DNA from: an uncultured Clostridium sp.
GTDB lineage: Bacteria; Bacillota; Clostridia; TANB77; CAG-508
Direction of reading: 5' to 3'
Length of the DNA stretch: 64,000 bases
NCBI GenBank assembly: GCA_947427205.1
Contig: CANEHB010000008.1
Location: forward strand, 3,307-67,306
Positions 23,505 through 23,812 of the stretch are shown here, piece after piece. The notes beneath the pieces are model-generated. The model did not search any database. It was not told where the DNA came from and saw only the letters and a program-made list of their open reading frames with translations. Every line of letters begins with the position of its first letter. Position 1 is the first letter of the stretch. Made by a program: the position numbers and the translations under genes.

Positions 23505-23812
23505 TGGAGCCGCTAGTCAGACTTGAACTGACGACCTACTGATTCATACTACCATAATTTTCATTACCACAAATGTGTTTGTAGTCTGGACTTTCTCTTT
23601 ACCATAGCTTACGCCTTAGGTACACCGTATAAAGTCTCTACACTCGAAATTTCTTTCTAGCTCGGGATTAACATATATTTCTACTTAGTCTTCCCCGAAT
23701 TAGCGGTGTCCACTTTACAAATTTCTTTGTAAAGGTGCAAAATAGTTCAAAATAAACATTCCTGTTTATCTATTCCACAAGTCAGTTGCTCTACCAACTG
23801 AGCTACAGCGGC
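23505..23812 (-). tRNA. tRNA-Thr(UGU) interrupted by a 232-nt group I intron after anticodon position 36. Exon 1 is 23777..23812 and exon 2 is 23505..23544, with CCA encoded.
   Basis: The 5' half GCCGCUGUAGCUCAGUUGGUAGAGCAACUGACUUGU gives acceptor, D and anticodon-stem arms ending at the anticodon UGU. The 3' half AAUCAGUAGGUCGUCAGUUCAAGUCUGACUAGCGGCUCCA supplies loop positions 37-38, the complementary anticodon stem, a 5-nt variable loop, the T arm, a 7-bp acceptor stem and CCA. Confidence 0.7.
23545..23776 (-). ncRNA. Group I intron (IC3-like, Azoarcus tRNA-Ile intron family) inside tRNA-Thr
   Basis: Starts GGAAUAG and ends ...GUAGUAUG (terminal G). P1 can form between exon UGU and intron GCA with the U-G wobble at the splice site. 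P2 hairpin CUUUACAAA/UUUGUAAAG. Core blocks AAUUCGGGGAAGACUAAGUAG and GUGUAGAGACUU..CCUAAGGCGUAAGCUAUGG resemble the conserved P3-P7-P9 core of bacterial tRNA group I introns (recalled from memory). No internal ORF. Confidence 0.6.

Follow-up and report, generated by a model that had tools for sequence, protein, structure and literature searches.

A tRNA-Thr(UGU) gene split by an Azoarcus-like group I intron and its association with a free-standing HNH endonuclease gene in Clostridia

The split tRNA-Thr(UGU) gene and its operon

The 64,000-nucleotide (nt) stretch of DNA analysed here (the window; contig CANEHB010000008.1 of assembly GCA_947427205.1, from an uncultured Clostridium sp.) carries on its minus strand a tRNA-Thr(UGU) gene in two halves. 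Reading of the strand and extraction by script placed the 36-nt 5' half, GCCGCTGTAGCTCAGTTGGTAGAGCAACTGACTTGT, at 23812 to 23777 and the 40-nt 3' half, AATCAGTAGGTCGTCAGTTCAAGTCTGACTAGCGGCTCCA, at 23544 to 23505. An insert of 232 nt (23776 to 23545) lies exactly between tRNA positions 36 and 37; it begins with GGAATAG and ends with GTAGTATG, and its longer ends read GGAATAGATAAAC...GGTAGTATG. The 5' exon (23777..23812, positions 1-36) ends in ACUUGU, with U36 as residue U-1 of the splice site, and the 3' exon (23505..23544, positions 37-76) encodes the CCA. When introns were allowed, ARAGORN called a tRNA-Thr(tgt) that folds into a regular cloverleaf, is 76 nt long and has an intron of 232 nt at 36-37 ('cttgt-Intron-aatca'). 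This agrees with the first-pass annotation, an earlier description of this DNA, which had claimed two halves of 36 and 40 nt around a 232-nt insert at this site and had suggested an intron-mode search as a check. In its default mode ARAGORN did not call the split gene in the window and reported only the upstream tRNA-Lys(UUU) and tRNA-Glu(UUC).

The pairs G1-C72 and C2-G71 and the anticodon UGU are identity elements of threonyl-tRNA synthetase, and all of them are present in the spliced form of the tRNA. The sequence of this spliced form is identical to the natural intronless gene at a related locus, L236, whose exons match those of the window at 100%, and at seven further metagenome loci. The 308-nt split gene is base-for-base identical in five independently assembled contigs of the same organism and is therefore not an assembly artefact. 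Furthermore, the exons of the intron-bearing alleles show compensatory changes between species in the acceptor and T stems, which indicates that they are under selection.

The tRNA-Thr(UGU) gene is the third gene of a Lys-Glu-Thr operon, the upstream part of which spans 23845..24084, and this order is kept in most related loci. All elements of the operon lie on the minus strand: a promoter-like site (TTGACA-17-TATTAT; consensus match) at 24056-24084, tRNA-Lys(UUU) at 23947-24022 and tRNA-Glu(UUC) at 23845-23919, the two tRNAs being found by ARAGORN in default mode and by Rfam scan. Directly 3' of tRNA-Thr is a terminator-like hairpin, found as an inverted-repeat pair at 23471..23503, with a 15-base-pair (bp) stem, a 3-nt loop and a T run; a similar hairpin is also found 3' of the intronless allele in L236. 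The host is a low-GC spore former (25% GC, with spoIIR and murA nearby).

Sequence and structure of the insert

The insert (23545..23776, minus strand; G1 at 23776 and the terminal guanosine, omega-G232, at 23545) was compared with the Rfam group I model RF00028 (Intron_gpI), a check that had also been suggested. In a scan of the 501 nt between 23400 and 23900 the model matched at 23567-23759 of the minus strand with 52.8 bits against a gathering score of 50 (E 1.2e-12), and the match spanned the full model (positions 1-253). A structure from P1 to P9 was drawn by hand, guided by the published alignment gpI.sto (Williams 2020), and is numbered here by intron positions. It was examined on an alignment of 38 distinct homologous introns, with 500 shuffles and with pairing partners slid by 1-3 columns as controls. 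In these introns 98.9% of the cells were paired and 30 of the 77 pairs had changes on both sides, whereas none of the 500 shuffles was as good and the slid partners gave 32-41% pairing with at most 7 double-change pairs. Covariation was seen in P1, the P1 extension, P2, P3, P5, P6a, P8, P9, P9a and P9b. The helices P4 and P7, the joining segment J8/7, the U-1·G pair and omega-G were invariant, and invariant helices are uninformative on pairing, for or against.

P1 (23736..23779) is formed by the exon UGU and intron 1-7 (23779-23770) with the internal guide CUAUUUUGCA at intron 32-41 (23745-23736). The pairing of UGU|GGAAUAG with this guide gives a U-1·G39 wobble at the 5' splice site, and the exon UGU meets G39-C40-A41, as the first-pass annotation had claimed for a GCA about 39 nt into the intron. 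P1, helix 2 of the set, showed 99.4% pairing and double changes in 3 pairs, the U·G being present in 36/36 sequences having the region; helix 3 of the same entry had 5 double-change pairs. The P1 extension is a hairpin of intron 8-25 with a GGAA loop (23769-23752). P2 (intron 43-64; 23713..23734), found as an inverted-repeat pair and previously described as a clean hairpin, has 9 bp, 8 of them with double changes, and a GAAA tetraloop that is likely the partner of the receptor in P8. P3 (68-73/150-155) was 100% paired with 2 double-change pairs and encloses, within 23622..23709, the invariant P4 (79-84/110-115), P5 (88-106) and P6/P6a (116-135). P5 has a receptor-like ACUAAG/UAUGU and a GAAA loop; its outer helix has double changes in 1 of 2 pairs, with 16/38 sequences changed on both sides, and its inner helix is the weakest of the structure at 85.7% paired. 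P6/P6a also ends in a GAAA loop and has 4 double-change pairs.

The guanosine-binding helix P7 (139 and 141-145 with 184-189, bulged A140; 23588..23638) was 99.6% paired and invariant, and it matches GAGACUA/UAGUCC of the intron in Azoarcus. It encloses J8/7 and P8 (157-175), which has the canonical 11-nt receptor CCUAAG/UAUGG and a GUAA loop. P9 (23549..23584) is a three-way junction of P9 (193-196/225-228), P9a (200-209) and P9b (211-222, GAAA loop), as in Ncf2.Leu.3Ug and other gpI.sto entries; helices 13-15 each have double-change pairs and the region ends in UAUG with omega-G. The claim that the insert ends in G holds for G232, and the last intron residue was G in 42/42 tRNA-Thr introns among the matches listed, in an invariant column of the 38-sequence alignment. 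Thus, the P3-P7 pseudoknot, the P4-P6 domain, a P7 with a bulged nucleotide and J8/7 were all found. The minimum free energy fold of the intron alone contained the P1 extension, P2, P4-P5, P6a, P8 and P9b but lacked the pseudoknotted core (z = -2.35) and was not taken as evidence.

The insert has the traits of subgroup IC3 tRNA introns, namely the anticodon-loop site 36/37, a length of 232 nt, such introns being compact at about 200-250 nt and lacking P5abc, and the motif pairs L2 GAAA/P8 CCUAAG/UAUGG and L9b GAAA/P5 ACUAAG/UAUGU, from which the L2-P8 and L9b-P5 loop-receptor contacts are predicted. These findings support its assignment to the group I introns of bacterial tRNAs, as one of the IC3, Azoarcus-like type, a label given by shared features and without a formal subgroup classifier. 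We consider it very probable, at roughly 0.87, that the locus is a tRNA-Thr(UGU) gene split at 36/37 by an Azoarcus-like 232-nt group I intron.

Comparison with known tRNA introns

The closest known comparison is the IC3 intron of the Azoarcus pre-tRNA-Ile(CAU) (Aol6.Ile2.5Ug; Williams 2020), which has the same 36/37 site, U-1 and omega-G, and the crystal structures of which are cited in PMC3984707. In the gpI.sto alignment the two introns are 66% identical over 168 aligned nt, so the resemblance of core blocks that the first-pass annotation had noted was real; the shared blocks are AAUUCGGxGAA, GUGUAGAGAC and CCUAAGGC..GCUAUGGU.AAG..AGUCCAG. Common to both are J3/4-P4, J6/7-P7, P3', the P8 receptor CCUAAG/UAUGG, J8/7-P7' and the GAAA loop on P2. 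The hosts and lengths differ, tRNA-Thr and 232 nt in the window against tRNA-Ile2 and 205 nt in Azoarcus. The P1 extension hairpin (intron 8-25) is present only in the window intron, which also has a three-way P9 (P9a, P9b) where Azoarcus has one hairpin, whereas its P5 and P6 are much shorter and AT-rich. The three-way P9 is common in other bacterial tRNA introns of gpI.sto. The first-pass annotation had seen an extra 3' extension of about 60 nt in the window intron, and this part of its description did not stand. After ...GCUAUGG the Azoarcus intron continues with UGAAGGCAUAGUCCAG, that is J8/7 and P7', and then with the P9 hairpin, and the supposed extension is therefore nothing but the ribozyme's usual 3' part; after GUCCAG the window intron has 41 nt and the Azoarcus intron 26 nt.

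Williams 2020 (bioRxiv 10.1101/2020.01.27.920355) describes 21 classes of introns found by an Rfam match together with a split tRNA called by ARAGORN, and gives as classical bacterial cases tRNA-Leu at 34/35, tRNA-fMet at 33/34, tRNA-Arg at 36/37 and tRNA-Ile2 at 36/37. One of these classes, 'Thr.5Ug', comprises group I introns of tRNA-Thr at anticodon-loop site 5 (36/37) with U-1 and omega-G. Its seed Rba53 (Rba53.Thr.5Ug) is a GC-rich intron of 258 nt in tRNA-Thr(GGU) that is 64% identical to that of the window, and an adjacent endonuclease is not discussed in that preprint. The window intron is therefore of a catalogued kind, the "Thr, 36/37" class anticipated by Williams 2020, and the Clostridia lineage is a further member of it, the adjoining HNH endonuclease gene being the new feature. 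[quoted passage not shown] In the accessible parts of the literature, with the phylum tables of the surveys out of reach, no published description of a tRNA-Thr(UGU) intron lineage in Clostridia was found.

The IC3 introns of cyanobacterial and plastid tRNA-Leu(UAA) and of proteobacterial tRNA-Arg(CCU) belong to the same family and share the architecture including the three-way P9 junction; the hosts differ, and the tRNA-Leu site is 34/35 against 36/37 in the window. A self-splicing group I intron is known in a tRNA-like RNA gene of a Clostridium, the transfer-messenger RNA (tmRNA) of Clostridium botulinum (Cbo40.tmRNA in gpI.sto; PMC2729099), but it differs from that of the window in its T-loop site, its length of 287 nt and a different subgroup-like core with a large P7.1/7.2-type insertion.

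Distribution of the intron and empty sites

Relatives were found by an exact-pattern scan for the P7-P3'-P8 core, and ARAGORN then located most of them in the anticodon loops of host tRNAs. The pattern matched at least 119 times in contigs of one genome per species and 16 times in viral contigs. Hosts among the matches listed were tRNA-Thr(UGU) (44), tRNA-Leu(UAA) (19), tRNA-Met/Ile2(CAU) (13), tRNA-Arg(CCU) (12) and a few others; 105 of the 135 matches listed sit in tRNA genes that ARAGORN calls intron-split, and the remaining 30 are mostly truncated where a contig or locus ends. With introns of up to 1800 nt allowed, at least nine viral loci (L009, L010, L011, L015, L016, L018, L019, L021, L022, L023) resolved to long introns, and ARAGORN found no host tRNA for four Prevotella loci, L014 and L139. 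The Prevotella loci (L057, L062, L074, L078) have the IC3 core pattern and no ARAGORN host even with introns of up to 1800 nt, and may be longer introns containing an open reading frame (ORF) or lie in another host gene. A megablast search of the window locus against the phage collection gave tRNA-sized matches only.

Forty tRNA-Thr(UGU) loci among the matches listed have the intron at 36/37 with a length of 205-240 nt, and almost all of them keep the order tRNA-Lys, tRNA-Glu, tRNA-Thr. They are labelled Clostridia, Clostridium, Clostridiales or Eubacteriales (metagenome-assembled and other genomes), Clostridium sp. CAG:508 being an example. The lineage is thus found in at least 40 species-level genomes, mostly of uncultured gut Clostridia, and the statement of the first-pass annotation that such introns are rare in Firmicutes is not true of this clade. 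Two loci, L110 and L133, have a shorter intron of 205-209 nt without the P1 extension hairpin, and there the HNH gene lies 30-50 nt past the tRNA and is encoded on the opposite strand.

Comparison of related strains, another check proposed at the outset, showed the insert to be present in some and absent in others. Locus L003 (GCA_948576175.1), from the same species, matches the window at 99.7% identity as far as the 5' exon, with an identical 988-amino-acid (aa) neighbour protein, and carries an uninterrupted tRNA-Thr(UGU) in the same place. From the end of tRNA-Glu on, the two diverge in the spacer, at some positions of the exons and throughout the DNA downstream. A metagenome scan for the spliced junction found at least 120 intronless genes, mostly in the Lys-Glu-Thr setting. 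Relative to these empty sites the insertion is exact at CTTGT|AATCAG. No terminal inverted repeats or target duplication were found at 23545/23776, and no ORF of 50 aa or more inside the insert. The exact insertion and the absence of target duplication and terminal inverted repeats exclude insertion sequences (ISs), miniature inverted-repeat transposable elements (MITEs) and IStron-type elements, IS or MITE features having been named as speaking against an intron, and together with the RF00028 match and the covariation of P1-P9 they bear out the group I identity first proposed. The empty sites further show that the intron is optional, both inside a species and from one close species to another.

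The DNA after the tRNA-Thr of L003 (9435-10786) bears no relation to the window. It contains a hairpin, the repeat GTCCCCA three times and, on the minus strand, two small genes, one of which matches HTH_3 faintly, and it runs to the contig end. It may be an element integrated beside the tRNA.

The adjacent HNH endonuclease gene

A free-standing gene for an HNH endonuclease of 130 aa (23010..23402, minus strand) starts 103 nt after tRNA-Thr, and upstream of it is a promoter-like site, TTGTCA-17-TATAAT (23419..23447, minus strand; 11/12, consensus match only). The protein has an N-terminal CxxC..CxxxC zinc ribbon followed by the HNH motif EIEHIDGN..NL..LCPNCH. It matched PHROG HNH endonuclease families (E 5e-19 to 8e-17), and its HNH region matched the NCBIfam IscB model (1.4e-9); Pfam PF01844 and PF13392 matched it below their cut-offs only, and a PDB sequence search gave nothing significant. 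The catalytic and zinc-binding motif residues (C/H/N/D) do not vary among 9 diverse members, and intact copies have a median ratio of nonsynonymous to synonymous substitution rates (dN/dS) of 0.18-0.26. Orthologues with 60-77% identity lie between tRNA-Thr and a short-chain dehydrogenase gene in many related loci, and in many species they follow the intron-bearing tRNA by 55-120 nt. No homologue of the window HNH protein was found at the 19 tRNA-Leu and 12 tRNA-Arg loci listed for the same core pattern.

The region downstream of the HNH gene (21649-22962) contains a 124-aa ORF with weak Arc-like repressor PHROG matches, an HTH_26 gene (78 aa) on the opposite strand and a 179-aa ORF without matches. 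This region has no counterpart in the intronless L003 and is therefore perhaps part of a small variable island.

The presence of the HNH gene was compared among loci with enough flanking sequence, 36 intron-containing and 110 intronless among the matches listed. The arrangement of the window, an ORF-less intron with a free-standing endonuclease gene beside the interrupted gene, with HNH intact, was found at 19/36 intron-containing loci, and an intact HNH was found beside 1/110 intronless ones (Fisher p = 5e-13, odds ratio 122). At other intron-containing loci a stop, frameshift or internal deletion had broken the gene (L061, L102, L105) or it had shrunk to a C-terminal remnant of 20-30 aa (L026, L053, L055, L072, L109, L136), and it was absent at the remaining ones. 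Remnants were also found beside 17 of the 110 intronless loci. The pre-tRNAs of L104 and L034 are identical, and the two loci are set apart by a clean indel of 372 nt that equals the HNH gene. The pre-tRNAs of L071 and L088 are likewise identical, and in L088 a segment without homology to the HNH gene has taken its place at the same point. The replacing segment (L088, about 6480-7020, minus strand of the locus) is 543 nt long and holds a 107-aa ORF (MKNMKVSTIDLDF...).

Phage relatives of the intron and the HNH gene

In two viral contigs, L011 and L023, a phage tRNA-Thr(UGU) is split at 36/37 by a homologous intron of 586 nt, the loop L5 of which encodes an HNH protein 60-63% identical to that of the window. 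Without the ORF these introns are 78-84% identical to the Clostridia introns. The ARAGORN call 'tRNA-Tyr(gta) i39' for the long phage introns was rejected as wrong, the sequence being that of tRNA-Thr(UGU) at 36/37, and the isotype and position labels that this program gives at other loci therefore need care.

A wider viral scan with the HNH alignment matched more than 531 stretches, and counts were made on the best 80. In 67 of these the HNH gene is free-standing beside intronless genes of phage tRNA arrays, and in about 31 of the 67 the nearest tRNA is a tRNA(UGU). The intronless phage tRNA(UGU) genes have different anticodon stems. The HNH family is thus tied to tRNA genes generally and needs no intron for protection.

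Several other features of the viral loci were noted. The Thr(UGU) phage tRNAs that ARAGORN calls in L266, L268, L270, L271, L280 and L302 have a long variable arm, unusual for tRNA-Thr, and directly adjoin free-standing HNH genes of this family. Full-length ROOL RNAs (RF03087, 296-320 bits) lie near the tRNA arrays of intron-carrying viral contigs (L009 3627-4233, L011 3256-3875, L023 4991-5605, L010 3025-3427), one of which also carries a tmRNA. In L023 a second RF00028 match (8738-8925, 54.4 bits) lies in the same array, a few hundred bases past the HNH-containing tRNA-Thr intron.

Probable splicing, possible homing and alternative explanations

The intron is probably self-splicing, and its reactions would follow the group I scheme. 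After transcription it would fold into P1-P9, and the exon end UGU with GGAAUAG would pair with the guide CUAUUUUGCA, the U·G wobble of U36 marking the 5' splice site. Free guanosine bound in P7 would attack this site; G232 would next occupy the P7 pocket and the exons, kept together by the anticodon stem, would be ligated to give the loop CUUGUAA. The 11-nt-type receptors of P8 and P5 would probably receive the GAAA loops of P2 and P9b. The sequence, the covarying fold, the precise presence or absence of the insert and the intact, conserved exons are established, and catalysis is predicted from the sequence.

At the level of DNA, we lean slightly towards the view that the intron is mobile, or was so recently, with help in trans from the adjacent HNH gene. 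The enzyme would cleave element-free tRNA-Thr loci, and repair from a donor having both intron and HNH gene would copy both. The intron could interrupt the target site of the enzyme (collaborative homing), or it could be co-converted, lying 100-350 nt from the endonuclease gene. Decayed copies and remnants of the HNH gene beside both intron-containing and intronless genes are the pattern expected of a homing cycle, and free-standing, intron-embedded, decaying and lost endonuclease genes are the states expected from a homing cycle or the collaborative-homing route (PMC3984707, PMC2790892). Further indirect signs are the clean HNH indel between L104 and L034 and the low dN/dS of intact copies, which points to purifying selection. 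The locus might then be one stage in a natural series of mobile group I intron formation and decay, a tentative suggestion that falls somewhat short of probable. With the same reserve, the series could be that of one HNH lineage aimed at tRNA-Thr(UGU), free-standing in Clostridia, embedded in L5 in phages and decayed to remnants elsewhere.

Several observations weigh against these interpretations. RF00028 was not reported in either of the Rfam scans of the whole 64-kb window, in gathering and in E-value mode, and its margin over the cut-off is just 2.8 bits; routine annotation would miss the intron because speed filters drop the match in 64-kb scans. Splicing and DNA cleavage by the HNH protein are both deduced from sequence. 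The contrast of 19/36 with 1/110 spans two collections and is uncorrected for shared ancestry, and an intact HNH gene is missing from 17/36 intron-containing loci. L195, the sole intronless locus with an intact HNH gene (1206-1714, 56 nt downstream of the tRNA), is closely related to the intron-bearing L113; its contig has a coverage of 1.86x, and it may be a real intermediate or a two-strain chimera joined in the shared 3' exon. L195 and the association with intronless tRNAs in 67 of the best 80 viral matches weaken the strict form of the hypothesis, in which the intron is the sole self-protection of the endonuclease, and this form is retained only as one of two homing variants.

The same observations, with the HNH remnants at 17 intronless loci, favour a different explanation, in which the intron is a real group I intron and the HNH protein is not its helper but a selfish endonuclease of tRNA arrays that either has a separate target, at or close to the point where its gene is inserted, or lacks homing activity, so that co-occurrence would reflect linkage or shared descent. 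This is a serious possibility, though on balance a doubtful one, since next to intron-containing genes intact HNH copies show an enrichment of about 120-fold, no HNH gene is present at L003 in the same-species strain without the intron, and the closest phage relatives are housed in this same intron, at the identical position of tRNA-Thr. Intron-encoded endonucleases usually cut the site of intron insertion. That the intron is instead a dead relic which no longer splices, the tRNA-Thr copy being a pseudogene and another copy doing the work, is very improbable. Only 64 kb of the genome is in view and the Rfam score is near the cut-off, but compensatory changes maintain the fold in 38 or more distinct sequences of many species around an invariant P4, P7, J8/7, U-1·G and omega-G. 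The exons are intact with co-varying stems, and the gene is retained in a conserved operon with a promoter-like site and a terminator-like hairpin. With both the ribozyme fold and the tRNA under selection, a non-splicing insertion is hard to reconcile with the data. Readings of the insert as an assembly artefact or as a transposable element, whether IStron, MITE or IS remnant, have a negligible chance of being right. Clostridia do carry IStrons (PMC3984707), and the contigs of some assemblies break at the locus (the L004 type), but no transposase was found besides the missing terminal repeats and target duplication, the insertion is nucleotide-exact against empty sites, the sequence is identical in independent assemblies, and the insert matches the group I covariance model with a covarying structure. 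The IStron or MITE, assembly-artefact and pseudogene readings were therefore rejected.

Trans-assisted homing of the Clostridia intron would resemble the known cases of collaborative homing, such as F-CphI of cyanophage S-PM2 at psbA, the DNA polymerase intron of T3/T7-like phages and the T4 mobE/I-TevIII intron, in having a free-standing endonuclease with an ORF-less intron and in presence or absence that varies between close relatives. The related endonuclease inside the homologous phage intron corresponds to the end state of the collaborative-homing model (PMC3984707, PMC2790892). The known cases concern phage protein-coding genes, where cleavage at the insertion site was shown experimentally, whereas the present one concerns a tRNA gene of a bacterial chromosome and is known from its sequence.

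The interest of the locus lies in the wide but overlooked spread of the intron in gut Clostridia, its presence or absence between strains and the associated endonuclease. A well-sampled Firmicute lineage of at least 40 species is added to the bacterial tRNA introns, and it offers a natural series of small (205-240 nt), AT-rich variants of the Azoarcus-type ribozyme with covariation already mapped. Standard annotation overlooks the split gene, so that genomes of this gut clade would seem to lack tRNA-Thr(UGU). If the homing hypothesis is true, a tRNA intron is exchanged between phages and their hosts and trans (collaborative) homing acts on a bacterial chromosomal tRNA gene, a mobility that the surveys would have missed because only intron-encoded endonucleases were counted. 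If the link to the HNH gene holds, the free-standing, embedded, decayed and lost states at one site would make a testable system for collaborative homing.

Other features of the window

The protein of 988 aa encoded directly upstream of the tRNA operon (24226-27192, minus strand) is a fusion. It has an N-terminal domain of the UTP-glucose-1-phosphate uridylyltransferase family (PF01704), and its C-terminal part is a full phosphoglucomutase/phosphomannomutase (PF02878-PF02880). A sub-threshold match to RF03531 (n00280, a Clostridioides difficile small RNA inside a helicase gene) was also observed at 42067-42166 of the minus strand; it scored 53.6 bits (E 3.6e-6), where the gathering score is 65.2.

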